Shown here piece by piece: positions 9,093 through 43,762 of a stretch of 64,000 nucleotides of DNA (position 1 is the first letter of the stretch; each line of letters starts with the position of its first letter). Where the stretch lies: positions 1-64,000 of the forward strand of contig JBFMGO010000015.1 of NCBI GenBank assembly GCA_040752695.1, written 5' to 3'. A program made the position numbers and the translations under genes. The notes under the pieces are model-generated. The model saw only the letters and a list, made by a program, of their open reading frames with translations, was not told where the DNA came from and ran no database searches. The stretch comes from a bacterium (GTDB lineage Bacteria > SZUA-182 > DTGQ01).

Positions 9093-9471
9093 GGGATGAG
9101 ATTCCACCAAAAAGGGCGCAGCATGCTGCGCCCTTTTTGCATTCTGCATCCCTGCTGCACCGGAATGTTGTATAAACGGCTTAAGCCTCAATAAGAAAAG
9201 GTGGGGAGGAGGTATTTTTGGAGAAGGACTTATGTTCATCGGATTTGAGTACGTACCATGGGATAGGTTAGGTTGAAAGCATCCGCAGCAAAGGCCGCCG
9301 GAGGATTTCGACAGGTTTTTTGACAGCTCTTTGCCCTTGTGAAACGTGGTTGATTGATCAGCCTGCCCATGCCGATAAAGGAATAAGAATTATCCGGACA
9401 CAGGCAGTATCAGTATGGTGATGTTGGCACAGTTGGCAGATACGCAGGATGCACACGCGGGGGAGGAGGCT

Positions 9472-11269
9472 ATGAATAGCACGGTCATGCTGGCCCTGGG
9501 AGATGATTCTTGGCGCGTAACTTTGAAGTCTGCCCTTCAGGAAATGGATCTCGATGTTCGGGAAGTGAGTCAGGGCCCCCAGGCTATCAAGGATGCGGCT
9601 GTTTTGAAGCCGGCTCTGGTGATTATTGACGATACCTTGCCTTATCTCAGCGGATATCAGTTTTGCAGGTTGCTCAAGTTTGGGCTTCACCTGGACATAC
9701 CGCTGGTTATGATTCTTTCTTCAGAGCAGAAAATGGATCAGTTCTGGGGTAATACGTGTGGGGCGGACTATTGCCTGTCCAAACCCGTCAACCTCAAGGA
9801 ATTAAAAAGAATTGTTCAGGAAGCCTTGAAGTGCAGGAAAGCCCGGCGATCATTTTTTCAGCCACCTCTCATTATCGGACGGAGCATGAGTGATCTGGAC
9901 ATCCTGAAAATGGCCAATGATCTTTTAGATCGGCATCTGTTCCAGGAGAAAGTGATCAATGAGCTGAAATCGATGAGTCGGCAGGTTGACTCTATCCGGG
10001 ATCTGGTCTCGGCCATGATGCCTGTTCTCAATTCCCTCTTTCCCTTTCGAAGCTCTGTGGTCTTTTTGTATCATGAGGCCAGGGCCAGCCTTCTTGTCTC
10101 GATAATGGAAGAGGTTGGGCAGGAGAGGATCGACTCTTTGTATACCTATCTTTTGGCTCATCTCAGCAAAAACGAGGGGCTGGATTTATCTCTGGATGAC
10201 ATTCCCGTCACCCTCGTGGGGCCGGTTTTAGCTGACCCCGAGGCGCAATTAGAGGATCTGGAAAAGAGCGCTGTTTCCATTTTTTTGGGCAAAGGTCTTC
10301 AGAGCGCTCTGTGTTGCGTGGCCTTTGACGGCCTTAATATTGAAACCTTTCCTGAAGAGGAAGTTCAGATCTTTCATCTCATCCTTCAGCAGATCCTTGA
10401 GACTATCGAAGAGAAGATCGTCTTTGAGAAATCCATTCCTTTTTCCATTATCGATACTGTGAGCCACGAGGTTAACCGCTCCTTCTTTCTGAAAATCCTG
10501 GCCCAGAACATGGAGCAGTCCAGAAGATATCAAATCCCTCTGGCTCTGGTCGGTCTGGAACTGGGAAATTATTCGTACGTAGTCAAGCCATTGGACAAAA
10601 AGGCGGAGTTTCATTTCCGCCAGAACATTACAACAACTCTTCTCAATGCTGTCCGAAAAATGGATGTAGTGGCCAGGATCAGTGAGAACAGGTTCATTCT
10701 CATCCTTTTCAAGGCCAATGCCGAACAGGCCAGGACCGTTTATCAGCGGGTGAGGACCATTCTGGAGGATCTGTCCCCACCGGATCTGCCGCTCCGGATT
10801 CAAGGCGGATTTTGGCCCTACGTTGCTTCACTTGGGCTGGAGGCTGAAGATTTTCTCCTGATAGCCTGCTCCAGGATTTTTCAGCAGGAGTCCGGAAAAT
10901 CTGCCAATACCAGGTCAGATACAGAGCACGAGTCGTCCGGTATACCTACGGACGATACATACCGCACACTAACAGTGGGTGAGTCGTCCGGTATACATAC
11001 GGGCGAATCCCGGGGGCTTAAAGAGGATGAATCCTCTGGTGAACAGGCACAAGACATATGCCGCACCCTAGCAGAGGCCGCATCGGCCAGGGCACATACG
11101 GGCGAATCCCGGATGCTTAGGGAGGACGAATCGGCTGGTGAACAGGCACAAGACATATGCCGCCCCCTAACAGTGGGTGAGTCGTCCGGTATACCTGCGG
11201 GTGATACATACCGCACACGTTCCATTTCTGATGAGGATGAAGTGGAAGTGACCGGCGGTGAGGCCGAAC

Positions 11270-36628: not shown

Positions 36629-36676
36629 ACAGGCGAAGCCTTTGACATCTCCAGCAATGTCAAAGGCTTTCGCCTG
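36629..36676 (-). terminator. Strong hairpin downstream of the putative precursor gene
   Basis: caggcgaagcctttgacat-ctccagca-atgtcaaaggctttcgcctg; a second hairpin at 36384-36420. Confidence 0.7.
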
Positions 36677-36696: not shown

Positions 36697-37401
36697 TTAA
36701 TAGGTAAGGGCGGAAGGCCAGGAAGCGGGCCAGGAAGTGGAAGAAGTCGTCGGCAGACTTATTCCGTAGAGAGCCCAGACGGTAGATCCAGGCGGTGTAT
36801 AGGATGTATCAGGAAGAGTAGGTGCGGAGATCCCATACAAGGGGCCGAAAGCAGTAGTCGGGGGAGAATAGATTGTTTTTGGCGTAGGTATATTGACACC
36901 ATAATAGGTAGTCGGGCTGGGGACTTGCGCGGCATAGAGAGGCACGATTTGCCCGGGAGAAGTATTTCCGGAATTACCGGGATAGGTGCCCCAGGGATAA
37001 GATCCAAAAAATCCTCCCAGGATATTCCACAAGGGAGAAAGAAAGCTGTTGACGCTGCCCCATAGATTCGTGATTGGACTTGACCAGGGAGAGGTATAGG
37101 ATGTGATGGGATTGTTCCAGAAAGGGAGCGTGTTGTAGGGAGAATAACTGCCAAATCCGTAGGGATTATATCCATAGCCATATCCGCCCCAGCCTCCCCA
37201 CGGGTACCAGCTTGTGGGAGAAATGCGGTTATATTCATAAGGCAGTGGAAATTCATAATACTTTTTCAGTTCACTGATAGGTGTAGGCGCTCCATAATAA
37301 AGTCTGAATTCGCTGTCGGGTGTGCTATATCCACTGTATCCACTATACAGCGATTGAGTGCTTCGCCGGTTTTCCAGTTTTTCGAAAAAAATATGAGCCA
37401 T
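36697..37401 (-). CDS. Putative RiPP precursor / radical SAM substrate (234 aa, Y/G/P/S/T/W-rich, repeated xYG motifs)
   Basis: GGAGGT RBS, starts 5 nt after the radical SAM stop; charged N-terminus AHIFFEKLENRR; motifs LYYGA, TYYGV, PLYGI, ALYGI. Confidence 0.7.
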   Translation of the reverse strand: MAHIFFEKLENRRSTQSLYSGYSGYSTPDSEFRLYYGAPTPISELKKYYEFPLPYEYNRISPTSWYPWGGWGGYGYGYNPYGFGSYSPYNTLPFWNNPITSYTSPWSSPITNLWGSVNSFLSPLWNILGGFFGSYPWGTYPGNSGNTSPGQIVPLYAAQVPSPTTYYGVNIPTPKTIYSPPTTAFGPLYGISAPTLPDTSYTPPGSTVWALYGISLPTTSSTSWPASWPSALTY

Positions 37402-37406
37402 AATGA

Positions 37407-38459
37407 TTACCTCCTTTCCTTTGCCATTTTTTCCACACGGTAAAGGCAATAAGGATTGTTGAAGATCGATCCTGAAAAGCAAAAAGCCGTGGACTTACAG
37501 CCTCCCCGGCAGACATGGTTATACTCACATTCTTGGCAGTCACCTTCGAGCAGGCCGGTACGGAAGTTGCGATTGTAGGCGAAATTCCCCGGTTTGTTCC
37601 AGATGTCGGCCAAAGGCTCCTTGCGGATGTTACCTTCGATGAATTCGGGGCTGGAAGGCATGGACAGGCAGCCCTTAATGTCTCCGTTGGCTTCGACGCC
37701 AAGAGCCTGTATTCCGGCAAAGCAGCCGGTCCAGAAGGGAAGCCTGCCGGGTACGCTTTGCCGCAGAACTTCTTCATTGCGGCCAAAATAGCCGATGTTA
37801 TCGGCAATATCAAGGCGGAGCCGGCTCTCCTGCCTGACCTTGAGTACAAATTGTTCGAGGAGGAAAAGGTCCTGCGGCTGAATGATGTAATCGGAGTGCT
37901 CGCATAGTCTCCCGCGCGGGACGCCGATTTGCAGTTGCCAGATTTCCACACCCTCCTCCAGTGCCACCAGGTAGATCCGGTCAAGCTCAACCAGGTTGTC
38001 TTTGCAGACCGTAGTGACCAGGGCAGAAGAGACTCCGTTTTGGCGGAGCAGGGACAGGCTGTTGAGAACCCTTTGATATGCCCCTGTCTTTCGCCTAATT
38101 TTTTCATGGGTTTGCTGGAGGCCGTCCAGGCTTACGGCAACATTGGCAAGCTGAGCCTTTTTGATCCGCTCAACCAGGGCCTGATCCATAAGATAGCCGT
38201 TGGTAATGGCATTGACCTTGACACCATACCCTTCAAGGCACAGGGCCAGATCATCCCAGTCTTCCCGCATGAAGGGCTCGCCACCCAAAAGGGTCAGGAC
38301 TTCACAGCCCATCCGGCCTAACTGATGGCATAGGTCCAGGGCTTCCTCATGGTCGAGTTCCTGGCCTCGCTCCGGCCCTGCTTCGGAGCCGCAATGAGCA
38401 CAATTCATGTTACAGCGTAAGGTTAATTCCCAGACTACACTTCTGGGATAATACTTCAT
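37407..38459 (-). CDS. Radical SAM/SPASM peptide-modifying enzyme, PlpX (splicease)-like
   Basis: VWELTLRCNMNCAHCGS.AG; LLGGEP; NIGYFG..E..LR; WTGC.AG...LGVEANGDIKGCLS; CxxCxxxxxCxGGC...C. Confidence 0.85.
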   Translation of the reverse strand: MKYYPRSVVWELTLRCNMNCAHCGSEAGPERGQELDHEEALDLCHQLGRMGCEVLTLLGGEPFMREDWDDLALCLEGYGVKVNAITNGYLMDQALVERIKKAQLANVAVSLDGLQQTHEKIRRKTGAYQRVLNSLSLLRQNGVSSALVTTVCKDNLVELDRIYLVALEEGVEIWQLQIGVPRGRLCEHSDYIIQPQDLFLLEQFVLKVRQESRLRLDIADNIGYFGRNEEVLRQSVPGRLPFWTGCFAGIQALGVEANGDIKGCLSMPSSPEFIEGNIRKEPLADIWNKPGNFAYNRNFRTGLLEGDCQECEYNHVCRGGCKSTAFCFSGSIFNNPYCLYRVEKMAKERR

Positions 38460-38460
38460 C

Positions 38461-40593
38461 TTATCCAGGTAATATCTGGGATTTTCCTTCAGTAGCTTGA
38501 GGATATAGCGCATAAGAAATCTCCTGATAGACGTGTTCTGCCTCCGGAAGGAAACAGGGGTTTAACCCTTGAGCACGAAAAAGCCAGCAGCCTCCCCGGC
38601 ACATTGGAAGGTGTTCACACTTTTGGCAGGCTTCGAAAAGCCCGTCCGGCACATTCTGTCGGAAAGCGGCAAATTTTTGTTCCCAGATTTCCTTGAGGAG
38701 ATCGGTTCGGATATTTCCTTCTTTCTGGCCGGAAAACTTGGACATTGCACAGCCCAAAACATCCCCCTCGTGGGTGATGCAAAGGGTGTTCCATCCGCAG
38801 CCGCAAAAGAACGGCCCGCTCCGGATAAACGGCTCTAGCGGTCCGAGATAGCCGAAAGATTCCGATGGCTCTACAGGGAATCCGCGCTTTCTTGCCTCCA
38901 GCACGAAACGAAAGGCATTTTTGACAAGTTCGGAGCTGTTTCGTGCTGGTCTGCCATGCTGAAAGAGGAGTGGCTGAAGCTGAAGGCTCTGTGCTCCGGC
39001 ACGAAAAACTTCCTCGGTCAATTGCGGAAGCTCCATGATGTTTTCAGCAAGCAGGGTGGTGCTTACCGCAATGGAAGGGGCGCCTAGATCATGGAAAAAT
39101 TCGATGGTTCGGATTCCCCGCTCAAAGGAGCCTTCATCGTTAGTTTCTCCCGTAGATGGCCGGTCAACACCACGCAGGCGGTTTTGTGTACTTTTAAAGC
39201 CATCGAGAGTGATGATCACAGAATCAAAGCGCGCCTGCTCCAGTGCCAGGAGGTTTTCTTCCGTGGCCTGGCCATTGGTAGTGAGCCCCACTTTCATTCC
39301 CCGCTGATGAGCGTGGCGGGCAATGGAAAAGATGTCGGGACGCAGGAGGGGCTCTCCGCCGGTAATAGAAAAGAATTCACATCCCATCGATGCAAGTTCA
39401 TCCAGAGCTTTTTGGACTGCATCCATACTCAGCTCCTTCGGACTGGCCTGGCTGGACGTGGTTTCGCAGTGAGCGCAGCGAAACTGGCAGCGGTCCGTGC
39501 TCAGCCATTGCACATACAGGGGCTGCAGCCGGCCGTCCCGCCACTCTTTTTGGTATTGAGTAAGCAGCATCTTATGCGGCGGGATCTGTTGGGATGCCTG
39601 CTGTGAAACCTGCTGAGATGACTGCGGTGGAACCTGCCGGGATGCCTGCTGTGAAACCTGGCGAGGCCGGGGTTTCTGATTCCGTGAAGCGGAGTCATCC
39701 GGCACGGATTCATTCACAGAAGCCGGTGCTGTAGGTATTTCCTCAGGCAGGGGAGGCATACTACTCTCCACCTCCTGGATCGTTTTTTCCTGTTTATCGC
39801 TCTGAGGCTCATTTTTCTCTTTATGCAAAAATTCTTTAATTCCATCCGTAAAGGGGCCGACCAGGTCCAGGGGAAAGGGAAAAAGGATGGTGGAGCTTTT
39901 TTGGGTGGAGATTTGCCTCAGGGTCTGGAGATAGCGTAATTGAAGGCTTTGCGGATTGCCGGACAGAATCTGACCGGCTTTGGCCAGAGTTTGAGCTGCC
40001 TGAAACTCACCCTGTGCATCGATCAGGAGCGCGCGCCTCTCCCTTTCGGTCTCCGCCTGTTTAGCCATGGCGCGCTTCATCTCTTCGGGCAGGGTAACTT
40101 CCTTGATTTCGACAATGGGAATGGCGATTCCCCAGGGGGCTGTGGTAATAGTGATGATTTGCTGCAACCTTTGATTGATACTGGTCTGCTGACTGAGCAG
40201 GTCATCCAGCTCCACCTGGCCAAGGACACTGCGCAAAGTGGTCTGGGCGATCAGGAATGTGGACTGGTAGATGTTTTGAATGCCAACGACCGCTCTGGCC
40301 GGATCAGTGATATTGAAGTAAACGACCGCATCCACCGTTACCGGAACATTATCTTTGGTCATGATGTCCTGGCGGGGAACATCTACGGATACCAGCCGTA
40401 AGTCGATCCTCTGCATCCGGTCAACCAGCGGTATCAGGAAAACCAATCCAGGCCCCTTGGTGCCTGCCAATTTTCCCAGCCGAAAGATGACTGCACGCTC
40501 ATATTCTTTCAGTATCCTGACAGCAGAGCAAACAAGGGCGGCCAAAGCCATGAGATAAAGAAAAGTCTTTAAATATTCCAACTGCATAGGCAT
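38461..40593 (-). CDS. SPFH (stomatin/slipin)-radical SAM/SPASM fusion protein
   Basis: EYERAVIFRLG...QTTLRSVLG...AE.ERERRA...LQLRYLQTL; Q/P-rich linker; CQFRCAHC; TGGEPLLRPD; SPASM cysteines; GAGGAG RBS at 40593. Confidence 0.88.
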   Translation of the reverse strand: MPMQLEYLKTFLYLMALAALVCSAVRILKEYERAVIFRLGKLAGTKGPGLVFLIPLVDRMQRIDLRLVSVDVPRQDIMTKDNVPVTVDAVVYFNITDPARAVVGIQNIYQSTFLIAQTTLRSVLGQVELDDLLSQQTSINQRLQQIITITTAPWGIAIPIVEIKEVTLPEEMKRAMAKQAETERERRALLIDAQGEFQAAQTLAKAGQILSGNPQSLQLRYLQTLRQISTQKSSTILFPFPLDLVGPFTDGIKEFLHKEKNEPQSDKQEKTIQEVESSMPPLPEEIPTAPASVNESVPDDSASRNQKPRPRQVSQQASRQVPPQSSQQVSQQASQQIPPHKMLLTQYQKEWRDGRLQPLYVQWLSTDRCQFRCAHCETTSSQASPKELSMDAVQKALDELASMGCEFFSITGGEPLLRPDIFSIARHAHQRGMKVGLTTNGQATEENLLALEQARFDSVIITLDGFKSTQNRLRGVDRPSTGETNDEGSFERGIRTIEFFHDLGAPSIAVSTTLLAENIMELPQLTEEVFRAGAQSLQLQPLLFQHGRPARNSSELVKNAFRFVLEARKRGFPVEPSESFGYLGPLEPFIRSGPFFCGCGWNTLCITHEGDVLGCAMSKFSGQKEGNIRTDLLKEIWEQKFAAFRQNVPDGLFEACQKCEHLPMCRGGCWLFRAQGLNPCFLPEAEHVYQEISYALYPQATEGKSQILPG

Positions 40594-40600
40594 CTCCTCA

Positions 40601-41566
40601 TCAACGAAGGAAAGGAAGAATAAACTTTCCCAGAATATTGGCAGCGAACCAGACAAGGCCCATTATGGAAAGGAGAGAAAAGATCAAGGAGAGCAACCCA
40701 TACAGGGAAAGCCAGTGAAATTCTCCCTTGACCAGGCGCTCCCGCCCCCTTTGCCGCAGGTTGACGGTTTTGGAAAGATCTGACAACAGCCAGTACCCAT
40801 CTCCATTGACCATGGGGTTGAGAATAATGGTCCAGCGGGTGTATTGAAGGATCAATAAAGGGGTAACGTAATATTCCAGGGGAGGGGAATAGAGAACGAG
40901 AGCTACCAAAAGAGCGTTAAAAATCAGGTCTGCCAGAAGGCCGGCAGAATTAATGAGTAGTCTGACGTTTTGCGGCAGACACCAGGCCGGGTGAGTATCC
41001 ATGTACACGGCCGGGAAAAAAAGGAGGTGGGTAAAACCCAGCCGGGGTGAAAAATAGGATCTGGCTACCAGGTAATGCCCCAGTTCATGCAGAATAATGG
41101 GTAAAAGACCGAAAAGACCGATCACCAACCCTTCGTACCCGCGATTCAGGGTGACTGTGCGGGCCAGGGTTCGGAAATATTCGACCTGGACAGCGGCAAG
41201 CAGTAGGAAAAGAAAGATAAAGGGCAAAAGATGAATGTCGTCTCTCTGCCGTCCCATGGTGATTTTCCCCTGGCGGGCAGGAACGATTGCACCTTCCTTC
41301 TCAAGACTCACGATAAGGGAGCGCAATTCCTGCTGCTCGACTTTGTACTTTTGGGCAGCGCCGCTTACCGACACCCCGCCGTTCAGCTCCAGAAGAATCC
41401 GCAGCGTCAGCCAGTCTACGTGAAAAAGTCCCCGGTTGGGTGTGCGTATCCAGAGGGTTCCGTCATCCAGGGGGCCATACTCGAAACGGAAACAGAGGCG
41501 GTAATTTTCCTGCTCTGCTGAATGGGGCGAAAGGGGAGGAGAGGTTTGGGGCGAAGAATTCTTCAT
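40601..41566 (-). CDS. Membrane site-2 (M50) metallopeptidase with N-terminal PqqD/RRE-like domain
   Basis: HELGH; AG...D; NP....DGY; N-terminal strands followed by helices ending L..LEKEGAI; AGGAGG RBS. Confidence 0.8.
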   Translation of the reverse strand: MKNSSPQTSPPLSPHSAEQENYRLCFRFEYGPLDDGTLWIRTPNRGLFHVDWLTLRILLELNGGVSVSGAAQKYKVEQQELRSLIVSLEKEGAIVPARQGKITMGRQRDDIHLLPFIFLFLLLAAVQVEYFRTLARTVTLNRGYEGLVIGLFGLLPIILHELGHYLVARSYFSPRLGFTHLLFFPAVYMDTHPAWCLPQNVRLLINSAGLLADLIFNALLVALVLYSPPLEYYVTPLLILQYTRWTIILNPMVNGDGYWLLSDLSKTVNLRQRGRERLVKGEFHWLSLYGLLSLIFSLLSIMGLVWFAANILGKFILPFLR

Positions 41567-41832
41567 CTCCTTATCCTCCTTCAATAGGGAAGTTTGATTG
41601 TCATGTCGAAATCTCAGTAAACCTAAGGCTGCCACAAGAAACGTACAATACACAACAAGTGATACCGGTAATACATGCACATCAATACTTTTACATCGGG
41701 GGGATTTTTTGCCGGATATCTATGCATCTACAGTAGACGACGGTTTTGAGAGAAAAACATTATGGAGAAAATTCCTTACGGAAGCAATTCCTGCCGGAAA
41801 AATTATCCCGATCCTGCCATTCTCCTTTGTTA

Positions 41833-42607: not shown

Positions 42608-43762
42608 TTATTTTCCTGTTTTATCCTTTTTGTGCTTATGGCTGCTGCCGCCGTGTTCCTGTTCACAGGTACAGGAGCTGCAACCGGCCCGCTCCAAAGA
42701 AGAAGGACGAGTCATCCTTGCCCAGCATCGGCCCAATCCCTCCTGGATATGCCCGATGGGGCCGGTACAGCCGTATTTGCAGACTGATCCGTCCGGCATG
42801 ATAGTGCACAGATGACTGTCCCTGGAAAGAATTTCATTGCTGCTGTGGATGCTTTCTCCAAAGGCTAATTTTAAACAGGGAGCGATCCGCCCGGCAGTGA
42901 GCCCATAAAAACGGCATTTTTCTTCAGCGTTGTTGTCCCTTGGAACATTGATTCCCCACTCCTTCACTCCCATCTTATGGAGGAGAAAGGAGAGTTGCTC
43001 GATTTCATCAAGATTATCCTGGTGAAGAGTCGTAGCCACGGAGACCACGAACCCCTCACTGCGGCACAGACCAATAGAATCGAGAGCCTGCTCGAAGGTT
43101 CCTTCCCCCCGGAGGCGTTCATGCCCCTTTTTCAGGCCATCCAGGCTGATTCGTACTTCCTGAATCCCCTTGAGAAGACGAAGCACCTCTAAAGTGACCG
43201 GCGTGTCGATGATCTGGATTATCTTTCGAAGCTTCATGCTGCTCATAAGTTCCAGGATTTGTTCTCTATCGGGGTGGAGCAGCGGCTGACCGGAAATGAT
43301 TACCTTAAGGCCCTGGAGGTGATAAAATTCGATCAATAATGTTTGGATATCAGCCGGTGACAGGTCCTGTAGCCGGGGTACATCAAGGTTGCAGTGGCTG
43401 GACTGGAAGCTTCGTCTTGAAGTGATCTTAAGGTCCAGATAGCGTAAGGATGGAGAAAACAAAAGTACAGGCTCCATGGGCCTGGGCTGAGCGTCGGTCC
43501 GCAGCTCCGGGTGCAGTTTCAGGATTCCTTCTTGCAGGCAAAAACGAAAAAATTCGGGCTCTGGCTTGAGCTGATCGATCCTTCGACTTCCATCGCATTG
43601 AATTAAAAATGCAAAGGCTGCATTATCGATTTCATAAAGTACGTCTTTCTGGATATTATAGAGATGAGGTCTCTCCAAAAGGCGGATAGTGCAGTCCGGA
43701 GAGAGAGATACGTACCTTTCCTGTTTTCTTAAGATATCTTTGCTCTTTGTTGTGTCAGCCAT
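42608..43762 (-). CDS. Degenerate radical SAM/SPASM homolog lacking CxxxCxxC, with RRE-like N-terminus
   Basis: LRYLDLKITSRRSFQSSHC in place of ..CN..C.HC; SGQPLLHP; ISLDG....H..LRG.GTF; ORF is intact. Confidence 0.75.
   Translation of the reverse strand: MADTTKSKDILRKQERYVSLSPDCTIRLLERPHLYNIQKDVLYEIDNAAFAFLIQCDGSRRIDQLKPEPEFFRFCLQEGILKLHPELRTDAQPRPMEPVLLFSPSLRYLDLKITSRRSFQSSHCNLDVPRLQDLSPADIQTLLIEFYHLQGLKVIISGQPLLHPDREQILELMSSMKLRKIIQIIDTPVTLEVLRLLKGIQEVRISLDGLKKGHERLRGEGTFEQALDSIGLCRSEGFVVSVATTLHQDNLDEIEQLSFLLHKMGVKEWGINVPRDNNAEEKCRFYGLTAGRIAPCLKLAFGESIHSSNEILSRDSHLCTIMPDGSVCKYGCTGPIGHIQEGLGRCWARMTRPSSLERAGCSSCTCEQEHGGSSHKHKKDKTGK

Follow-up and report, generated by a model that had tools for sequence, protein, structure and literature searches.

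We analysed a 64,000-nucleotide stretch of bacterial DNA (GTDB lineage SZUA-182; DTGQ01), which covers positions 1 to 64,000 of contig JBFMGO010000015.1 in assembly GCA_040752695.1 (hereafter the window), with regard to a gene on its minus strand that encodes the protein P0001. Based on sequence comparisons, P0001 is very probably (we estimate about 85%) a leader-tagged substrate of the radical S-adenosylmethionine (SAM) enzymes of its own operon, with the Tyr residues of its repeated sites as the target. The operon encodes a protease and two radical SAM enzymes besides P0001, and both an N-terminal tag and Tyr sites are conserved across the family. Tyramine splicing, the excision of tyramine from a protein backbone, ranks first among the possible chemistries, with about even odds once every inferred step is counted. 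The product would be a protein-sized, multi-site, spliceotide-like polymer rather than several small peptides.

P0001 is encoded by the last gene of a four-gene minus-strand operon, which is followed by a hairpin:

40601..41680, minus strand: M50-like intramembrane HExxH metalloprotease with an N-terminal domain (residues ~56-135) that resembles the RiPP recognition element (RRE; RiPPs are peptides made on the ribosome and then modified post-translationally); start codon uncertain
38461..40656, minus strand: rSAM2, a stomatin/SPFH domain, a Q/S/P-rich linker and a radical SAM/SPASM enzyme (PF01145, PF04055, PF13186)
37407..38513, minus strand: rSAM1, a stand-alone radical SAM/SPASM enzyme of 368 aa (PF04055 and PF13186)
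36697..37401, minus strand: P0001 gene, 234 aa, stop codon included; an open reading frame (ORF) with homologues
36631..36676, minus strand: hairpin of 20 bp past the P0001 stop codon, from folding against shuffles

The rSAM2 and rSAM1 genes overlap by 53 nucleotides. The plus strand of 36697-37401 is not open and has many stops, and the reverse-strand frame is one clean ORF of 234 codons that opens with MAHIFFEKLENRR. Its ATG, at 37401, lies 5 nucleotides past the rSAM1 stop codon, and an AGGAGG 8 nucleotides 5' of the ATG falls inside the final rSAM1 codons; rSAM1 is translationally coupled to the substrate gene. A longer ORF with a TTG start (36697..37482) was rejected as the P0001 gene because it extends into the upstream gene. 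Downstream, a 91-nucleotide fold containing the hairpin reaches -42.5 kcal/mol (z -5.5), and 0 of 200 shuffles were equally stable. The hairpin is likely a transcript end or stabiliser; it has no U tract and was not called by a terminator scan.

The protein contains 27 Tyr, 24 Gly, 32 Ser, 32 Pro, 11 Trp and no Cys, and only two charged residues lie past residue 59. Two independent predictions find it disordered (ESM Atlas, predicted local distance difference test (pLDDT) 0.41; AlphaFold2 (AF2), mean pLDDT 46.6 with 15 sequences). The AF2 model has no fold, with short helices at residues 113-128 only. A feature-based comparison in the ESM Atlas returned no look-alikes of P0001, every structure row having a template modelling (TM) score of at most 0.30, and no Pfam or NCBIfam family matched. 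Such predicted disorder would suit a multi-site substrate.

Conservation within the family is concentrated at the N-terminus:

37348..37401, minus strand: leader, residues 1-18 (MAHIFFEKLENRRSTQSL), near-invariant in 62 family members

Homologues were collected by word-based searches (14 sequences), by a profile search against 1.84 billion representatives (44 sequences at E <=0.001, 21 at E <=1e-10) and by scanning species-representative genomes with the family profile (16 loci). The sequences were pooled, the leader pattern was required and duplicates and fragments of <80 aa were dropped, leaving 62 of 70. These ~60 relatives of P0001 all fall within one order of an uncultivated phylum. The consensus of the leader is M-[AP]-H-I-F-F-E-[KR]-L-E-x-R-x-[SN]-T-Q-[ST]-L, in which R12, T15 and Q16 are invariant or nearly so though the selecting pattern did not fix them. 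Each position of residues 1-18 holds 2.1-4.3 bits of information (2.65 or more except at position 11), and the content is <2 after residue 18. At the DNA level, the exact leader pattern was searched in a phylum sample of 20 species representatives (13 of the same order and 7 others). It has 24 matches in 11 of the 13 genomes of the order and none in the 7 others, and a reversed control pattern has 0 matches. Throughout the family of 62 the conserved leader is followed by a hypervariable region, as in the leader logic of RiPPs. The bodies diverge fast, are rich in Tyr, Gly, Ser, Pro and Trp, and contain 6% charged and 19% aromatic residues, with 20 Cys in 10399 residues; substrate length is 170-260 aa. 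A complex prediction for rSAM1 with P0001 residues 1-60 (score 0.00, mark 0.32, run without controls) carries weight neither way.

The sole motif that survives in the family bodies is [L/Y]-Y-[G/A]-[I/V]-x-x-P. The arrangement in P0001 is as follows:

37288..37302, minus strand: site 1, residues 34-38 LYYGA (Tyr36); Tyr in 14/15 homologues, next residue G 10, A 3
37147..37191, minus strand: Gly-Tyr block, residues 71-85, three extra YG without hydrophobic context; block in closest homologues
36982..37128, minus strand: conserved middle segment rich in Trp/Asn/Pro/Phe, residues 92-140
36928..36942, minus strand: site 3, residues 154-158 PLYAA (Tyr156; Ala replaces Gly); Tyr in 13/15, next residue A 7, G 6
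36895..36909, minus strand: site 4, residues 165-169 TYYGV (Tyr167); in closest homologues
36829..36843, minus strand: site 5, residues 187-191 PLYGI (Tyr189); Tyr in 14/15, next residue G 12, A 2, then I 6, V 8
36760..36774, minus strand: site 6, residues 210-214 ALYGI (Tyr212); Tyr in 12/15, next residue G 8, A 3

Residues 19-234 of P0001 contain five [LYMIVFW]-Y-[GA]-[AIV] sites, against a shuffle mean of 0.14, and 0 of 20000 shuffles reach five. YG itself occurs seven times, with one additional YA; the shuffle mean is 3.0, and 345 of 20000 shuffles reach seven. Five Tyr are conserved in position (12-15 of 15 aligned homologues), followed by G/A and then by I/V/A. Tripeptide enrichment among the 62 members is led by YGV (80 vs 3.6 expected), LYG (94 vs 6.4) and YGI (90 vs 6.0), at 15- to 22-fold over shuffles. 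I/V comes next in 68% of the 242 YG in the family and L/Y precedes in 60%, giving a logo of [L/A/T]-[L/Y]-Y-G-[I/V]-[S/N]-x-P. At least two sites are present in 44 of the 62 members, and single proteins have 3-6 sites, set apart by P/T/S-rich stretches. The substrate at locus L008 has an unrelated Pro-rich body, yet five such sites are kept; that so short a Tyr motif persists in unrelated bodies suggests recognition by an enzyme rather than an effect of overall composition. Of the 8 substrates encoded immediately after an rSAM1-type gene, 7 carry 4-5 sites (two slightly different patterns were used), and the two tagged proteins that adjoin other radical SAM enzymes carry 0-1.

A preliminary description of the gene, which named no strand, had reported five motifs in a protein without a Sec signal, together with a Trp-periodic segment. 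All five motifs were found: RLYYGAPTP (residues 33-41), VPLYAAQVP (153-161), TTYYGVNIP (164-172), GPLYGISAP (186-194) and WALYGISLP (209-217). We agree, judging by eye from the charged N-terminus and the lack of a hydrophobic stretch, that P0001 has no signal peptide, and it has no lipobox. The Trp residues of the proposed segment (W95, W106, W114, W125, W137) are there, and W95, N96, P123, N126 and G130 show little or no variation across 15 homologues. The periodicity found less support, as simple Trp patterns are not above shuffles (WxxP, 2 vs 1.6). We count the segment as real because it is conserved in homologues, not because of enrichment within the sequence. Family-wide, the enriched words SPW, NPF, LWN and GLF/LFG/FGG mark it. 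The description had further suggested that the two radical SAM enzymes might each target a different motif, such as the YG sites and the Trp segment; the sole hint of this, an indirect one, is the count of 0-1 sites in the two tagged proteins beside other radical SAM enzymes.

The same description had proposed either a multicore precursor or a multiply modified protein. In a true multicore precursor, the modified body would be cut between sites into small peptides with one Tyr site each. The 3-6 sites per protein and their P/T/S-rich spacers would fit this, as would the short multi-core peptides with regular TTxYGIxEE units that lie by a membrane protease and a transporter-sized gene at L021, and the M48 protease gene that is convergent with the P0001 gene downstream, here and in a same-genus genome. 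We disfavour this possibility because the spacers are irregular, there is no repeated cleavage motif (GG, acidic linkers) and the body, including a conserved middle segment without sites, is kept as one protein. Further, the M48 gene is not conserved by the module beyond the genus, and the conserved module includes no peptidase-exporter. Thus, cleavage into separate cores seems very unlikely, and a multiply modified protein fits better.

The 16 loci differ in how much of the operon they contain. The full protease-rSAM2-rSAM1-substrate module is present in three (L002, L008, L012), and in two the rSAM1-substrate pair lies at a contig end (L010, L013). One locus has the protease and rSAM2 with two other radical SAM genes and without rSAM1 (L016), and another has an rSAM2-like enzyme with another radical SAM enzyme (L014). 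In the remaining nine, no module enzymes were found within the DNA examined, and the neighbours are unrelated. A tagged protein is encoded directly behind the rSAM1 orthologue at every locus with enough downstream DNA. Between loci, the enzymes are 55-76% identical versus 31-41% for the substrates. The same-genus genome has the order nth, protease, rSAM2, rSAM1, substrate, a 23-codon remnant and a second substrate; the remnant (L118:9366-9437) is of a similar tagged gene and stands between two full ones. The genome under study has three tagged genes and a second, partly decayed module (C18:31113-35434) in which the protease is cut to its N-domain and rSAM2 and rSAM1 are intact. Of 12 same-order relatives, 9 have an rSAM1 orthologue (>=71% identity); none was found in 7 genomes of the same class but other orders, or in 21 genomes further away.

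These distributions bear on whether P0001 is modified at all. P0001 might instead be an unmodified, low-complexity structural or phase-separating protein, its tag serving as a sorting or degradation signal for the stomatin-protease pair and the radical SAM enzymes serving something else. SPFH proteins classically pair with membrane proteases (with PDB matches), tagged genes lie far from any radical SAM gene in 9 of the 16 loci, and other Tyr-Gly repeat proteins abound in the genome. Against this stand the fusion of a radical SAM enzyme to stomatin and the translational coupling of rSAM1 to the substrate gene. In addition, tag and enzymes are both limited to one order (rSAM1 in 9/12 same-order relatives and 0/28 others), and the short Tyr motif is kept in the otherwise unrelated body at L008. 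RiPP-like systems commonly have additional, scattered substrates for a single enzyme set, which also counts against an unmodified P0001. We therefore regard the absence of any modification as improbable.

Variant tagged proteins are encoded at L014:2861-3643, L016:1712-2371 and L024:4163-4654. Two of these have a conserved C-terminal helix-like tail and adjoin an rSAM2-like SPASM enzyme without SPFH domain and a PqqE-like radical SAM enzyme; FtsX permeases flank the variant gene of L016. One has a diverged tag (MKKILFERLEKRFSTQ...) and adjoins a radical SAM enzyme with a methyltransferase-sized N-domain fused to it. At L015:7515-8321 and 9402-11267, an orphan tagged gene has a chagasin-family (I42) protease-inhibitor protein on one side and a YcaO-domain protein on the other.

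The chemistry proposed for the Tyr sites depends on rSAM1, which matches PF04055 with 86.7 bits and PF13186 with 35.3 bits. Its CX3CX2C motif consists of C34, C38 and C41, and seven further SPASM Cys are invariant in 35 aligned sequences. The radical SAM core begins at about residue 29, without an N-terminal RRE. The top NCBIfam match, over the full length, is TIGR04103 ('nif11-class peptide rSAM maturase 3') with 284.1 bits, followed by TIGR03913 (238.1 bits) and heme b synthase (171 bits). Other matches are TIGR04133 (161.6 bits, cut-off 425) and NF050035 (126 bits). We take TIGR04103 to be equivalent to IPR026482, the PlpX family. The same two families rank first in 7 of 7 rSAM1 relatives at 41-53% identity, and TIGR04103 has no match above its cut-off across 14 control genomes. 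In the PDB, a sequence search returned no splicease structure, the best match to rSAM1 being SkfB (62.6 bits), and a literature search on TIGR04103, TIGR03913 or rSAM_nif11_3 found nothing. Excerpts of a review place PlpX in InterPro IPR026482, adjoining Nif11/NHLP precursors. The splicease link that the preliminary description had drawn from the YG motifs gains from these results, since the nearest curated family is TIGR04103 and the substrate lies directly behind rSAM1. A leader and YG motifs, on which that description had also relied, are both conserved beside homologous radical SAM genes.

The association with YG repeats extends to the wider enzyme clade. In 80 metagenome loci of rSAM1 relatives, we counted YG-dense ORFs (>=2 YG, >=1 per 100 aa, <=320 aa). 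Among nearby ORFs, 20 of 747 on the same strand qualify, as against 4 of 865 on the opposite strand, and 4 of 2019 distant ORFs do (same-strand vs distant, Fisher odds ratio 13.9). At least one is present in 17 of the 80 loci, many of the contigs being short and mutually related. Repeats in these ORFs include KYGYP, LYGVP, YYGV, MYGAP and FYGIANP. In a quick tree, rSAM1 and its C18 paralogue are sister (Shimodaira-Hasegawa-like approximate likelihood ratio test, SH-aLRT, 87) to the enzymes of L021 and L038, and at least four well-supported subclades include enzymes with YG neighbours. The nearest outgroup, L021, adjoins peptides of 84 and 87 aa with TT[YL]YGIxEE units.

The short multi-core peptides of L021 (4056-4310 and 5454-5717, plus strand) and the Y-A-[IV] peptides of L038 (5291-5482 and 5522-5659, minus strand) have helical-looking leaders. 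A CPBP-like membrane protein and a transporter-sized gene are found near these peptides. Distant rSAM1 relatives (L090, L095, L100, L111; L096, L102, L103, L105, L113) adjoin two further substrate types. In the first, 7-14 KYGYP or YYGV repeats come after a globular N-domain; the second, a membrane protein with a zinc ribbon, has 2-3 xYG[GAI]P sites.

The main rival to splicing is a Tyr-centred cross-link or, more broadly, a different radical chemistry that leaves the backbone intact: a Tyr-to-Ile/Val C-C or C-O cross-link (cyclophane- or triceptide-like, Omega-X-X), beta-hydroxylation or epimerisation. Within the subclade of rSAM1, residue +2 from Tyr is almost always Ile/Val (68% family-wide, always in L021 and L038), and Gly and Ala interchange between Tyr and Ile/Val as a small spacer would, L038 having only Y-A-[IV]. 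It also fits a cross-link that rSAM1 scores far under the splicease cut-offs and that NF050035, a Trp-Gly-Lys cross-linking maturase, reaches 126 bits. Set against this score, TIGR04103 lies >110 bits above every family outside the two splicease-type models, NF050035 included, and both of these models lead the next family by >60 bits. Distant relatives have Y, G, A or M at +2 (KYGYP, LYGGP, MYGAP), only Tyr-Gly being common to the clade, and Gly at +2 offers no beta-carbon to link. In excerpts of published work, X-Y-G is the site given for known spliceases: MYG and LYG for PlpXY, with published splice tags ...PLYGLPI and ...YGVVFP, and LYG for RasA. Because authentic PlpX sites in these excerpts are also aliphatic after YG (LYGLPI, YGVVFP), Ile/Val after Gly is no argument against splicing. 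We consider a backbone-sparing chemistry doubtful.

The protease of the operon is polytopic, and both M50 signatures, HE[LMF]GH and LNPxVxGDG, are conserved in five full-length orthologues. It scores 19.7 bits against PF02163 (cut-off 27.2), and its sole named NCBIfam matches are NF041824 and NF058609 (daptide-protease, YydH/LiaK), at 42-43 bits versus cut-offs of 300 and 225. The N-terminal cytoplasmic domain is conserved among the orthologues even more strongly than the M50 signatures. In the AF2 model, residues 60-134 form a beta-beta-beta(-beta)-alpha-alpha-alpha arrangement with pLDDT 60-79. An exhaustive structure search with residues ~54-143 matched TigE (8vpo, Z 8.7) and lasso B1 (6jx3_B, Z 8.7, root-mean-square deviation 2.4 over 74 residues). 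Further RRE matches in this search were TbiB1 (7.7), ThcOx (7.3), MibB (7.1), PqqD (6.9), TbtB (6.7) and the PbtF RRE (5.6), and the top 10 Foldseek matches were all RRE-bearing RiPP proteins. As modelled, the module thus includes an RRE-like domain, in line with RiPP logic. Excerpts of work on daptides describe leader removal by a peptidase that is intramembrane and RRE-dependent, and this precedent for an RRE-protease supports reading the tag as a leader.

The second radical SAM protein, rSAM2, has an ORF of 731 aa from a TTG codon, and a database gene call of 708 aa places the start at 40587. Its Band 7 domain is clear (PF01145, 124.1 bits vs cut-off 23.6; human stomatin 9oh9_A, 218.5 bits). 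The best NCBIfam match is TIGR04133, at 120.4 bits versus a cut-off of 425, and the radical SAM domains of rSAM2 and rSAM1 are 30% identical. Among 22 protein clusters related to the rSAM2 radical SAM domain, 19 have the Band 7 and Radical_SAM fusion, all from metagenome-assembled genomes or the genome under study. The adjacency of rSAM2 and protease is kept where rSAM1 is missing (L016). SPFH proteins are classic partners of membrane proteases in turnover control (HflK/C-FtsH, stomatin-NfeD). Literature searches found no account joining radical SAM, SPFH and RiPP, and no description of the fusion under stomatin, radical SAM and SPASM.

In the mechanism that we propose, the 18-residue tag would act as a leader that recruits the disordered P0001 to a membrane-bound maturation set composed of the RRE-bearing M50-like protease, the stomatin-anchored rSAM2 and the soluble rSAM1. 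The latter, putatively a tyramine-splicease relative that is leader-dependent without an RRE of its own, would act on the Tyr of [L/Y]-Y-[G/A]-[I/V]-x-x-P sites, of which P0001 would bear five or six. The RRE-protease would then remove the leader. rSAM2 may introduce a second modification, or may use a stomatin scaffold to link modification with the protease; the conserved Trp/Asn-rich segment and the residues just past the leader are its candidate targets. A more elaborate version, which we think unlikely, is a stomatin-scaffolded machine. Here, many radical SAM copies on an SPFH cage would surround the RRE-guided protease together with the soluble splicease-like partner. They would produce poly-keto-amide (beta-amino-acid) polymers with at least five electrophilic backbone sites and a second, Trp-directed modification, in an uncultivated phylum with genomes that also abound in secreted LYG-repeat proteins.

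Several observations weigh against P0001 being a spliceotide-like substrate of this kind. rSAM1 scores below the curated cut-offs (TIGR04103, 284.1 vs 725 bits; TIGR03913, 238.1 vs 591.75 bits), and its tree covers only its relatives. The only site of the sister-clade peptides at L038 is TT[RK]YA[VI]NEES, with Tyr-Ala. Gly is likewise not fixed within the family, site 156 having Ala in 7 of 13 homologues. The best-conserved site, at Tyr49, reads YE in P0001 and is lost, and 9 of the 62 family members have no site. The C18 rSAM1 is 76% identical, but its tagged protein, of 99 aa, has no [L/Y]YG[I/V] site. AF2 predicts no helix in residues 1-18 of free P0001, and a leader helix is reportedly required by binary spliceases; the AF2 result is still compatible with folding on binding. 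The RRE assignment rests on a low-confidence model (overall pLDDT 45.5) and on Foldseek E values of 0.09-0.95, and Pfam (E up to 10) finds no PqqD-like or other domain in the protease's N-terminal part. Finally, there is no exporter in the conserved module at the loci compared.

Upstream of the operon are nth and a third radical-SAM-like gene, and two further genes of note lie downstream on the plus strand:

42608..43762, minus strand: third radical-SAM-like gene; Pfam match from profile position 23, extra N-terminal domain of ~100 aa
35198..36361, plus strand: M48 metalloprotease gene, convergent, just downstream of the tagged gene; also in the same-genus genome
34069..34977, plus strand: secreted protein with ~34 (G/S)LYG(G) repeats and a conserved C-terminal domain; >=20 paralogues in the genome

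The third radical-SAM-like protein has, by eye, one Cys at the place of CX3CX2C and is possibly a pseudo-radical-SAM protein. Pfam at E up to 10 finds no domain in its N-terminal part. It was rejected as a member of the module, having no orthologue in related loci. The M48 gene is not conserved beside the module outside the genus, and its placement beside tagged genes may be chance. An unrelated M48 gene is in a like position at L004:945-3056 (minus strand).

The LYG-repeat protein was also rejected as part of the system, based on its scattered paralogues and on synteny within the genus only. These paralogues contain 20-38 YG each and are distributed over contigs C1, C3, C12, C33, C37, C45, C54, C77, C94 and others. 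They have a signal peptide and lack the leader. Of 12 same-order relatives, 11 have the C-terminal domain family, which was not found in 28 other genomes, and its presence does not strictly track rSAM1. The family turns up in a relative for which no rSAM1 was found, and vice versa, which argues against a shared system.

The closest known systems are the spliceotides (PlpA/PlpX/PlpY and PcpAXY of Pleurocapsa; RhaX/RhaA, RcsX/RcsA and RasX/RasA of Rheinheimera), which likewise have a SPASM enzyme encoded beside its substrate. In excerpts of the published descriptions the site looks the same, X-Tyr-Gly with X = Leu/Met-like, then aliphatic residues and Pro. These excerpts also state that type I spliceases need an RRE-like Y protein, that binary types are activated by a leader helix and that Tyr sits at the 5'-dA position in PlpX, PcpX and RhaX; the binary systems, as here, have a leader and no separate Y protein. 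Unlike in spliceotides, the tag here has 18 residues and is not a Nif11/NHLP leader (no Pfam/NCBIfam match), and the substrate is a disordered protein of 170-260 aa with 3-6 sites in which Gly and Ala alternate. The module also adds a stomatin-fused radical SAM enzyme and an RRE-bearing protease, so that the RRE is on the protease and not beside the splicease.

Other systems share single features. A polytopic HExxH membrane metalloprotease in a RiPP cluster is also found with the daptide peptidase MpaP and the epipeptide protease YydH/LiaK; in contrast to these, the partner enzymes here are radical SAM proteins, the substrate is protein-sized and the scores are 42-43 bits (cut-offs 300 and 225). 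SPFH-protease pairs (stomatin-NfeD/STOPP, HflK/C-FtsH, QmcA) likewise have an SPFH domain encoded beside a membrane protease, whereas the SPFH protein here bears a C-terminal radical SAM/SPASM enzyme and the protease is of an RRE-M50 type. rSAM1 and rSAM2 match TIGR04133 of the TIGR04133/TIGR04134 radical SAM/lipoprotein pairs, both below the cut-off of 425, but P0001, unlike the partners in these pairs, has a cytoplasmic leader instead of a lipobox or signal peptide. As with YG-repeat proteins found by SPASM enzymes, rSAM1 relatives adjoin x-Y-G-x-P repeat proteins. Triceptides and WgkB likewise combine repeated aromatic-X-X motifs in a precursor with an adjacent SPASM enzyme; the WgkB model scores 126 bits versus 284 for the splicease model, and the +2 residue is not conserved in the wider clade.

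Scott et al. 2022 (Chem) is said to list splicease types. The rSAM1 clade may already be among the predicted systems counted there. An excerpt of a later paper cites that work for 27 splicease systems that are characterised or 939 that are predicted. Taken together, the sequence comparisons suggest a variant of the splicease/spliceotide theme with a new leader family, disordered protein-sized multi-site substrates, a stomatin-fused second radical SAM enzyme and an RRE-guided protease.

In excerpts of reviews, mature spliceotides are described as not yet recovered from native hosts, known natural substrates are peptides, and whole-protein splicing has so far been shown by engineering. If P0001 is spliced at its Tyr sites, nature makes backbone-rewritten proteins, from a substrate of 200-plus residues with five or six candidate sites, and a portable 18-residue tag and a compact site motif would be available for engineering. 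Splicease chemistry would also be tied to an SPFH-fused radical SAM enzyme and an RRE-guided intramembrane protease, with which it has not been linked before. Should the stomatin-scaffolded machine exist, it would make the first natural protein-sized, multi-site spliceotide, and the product could be a multivalent covalent protease trap or a self-cross-linking matrix material.

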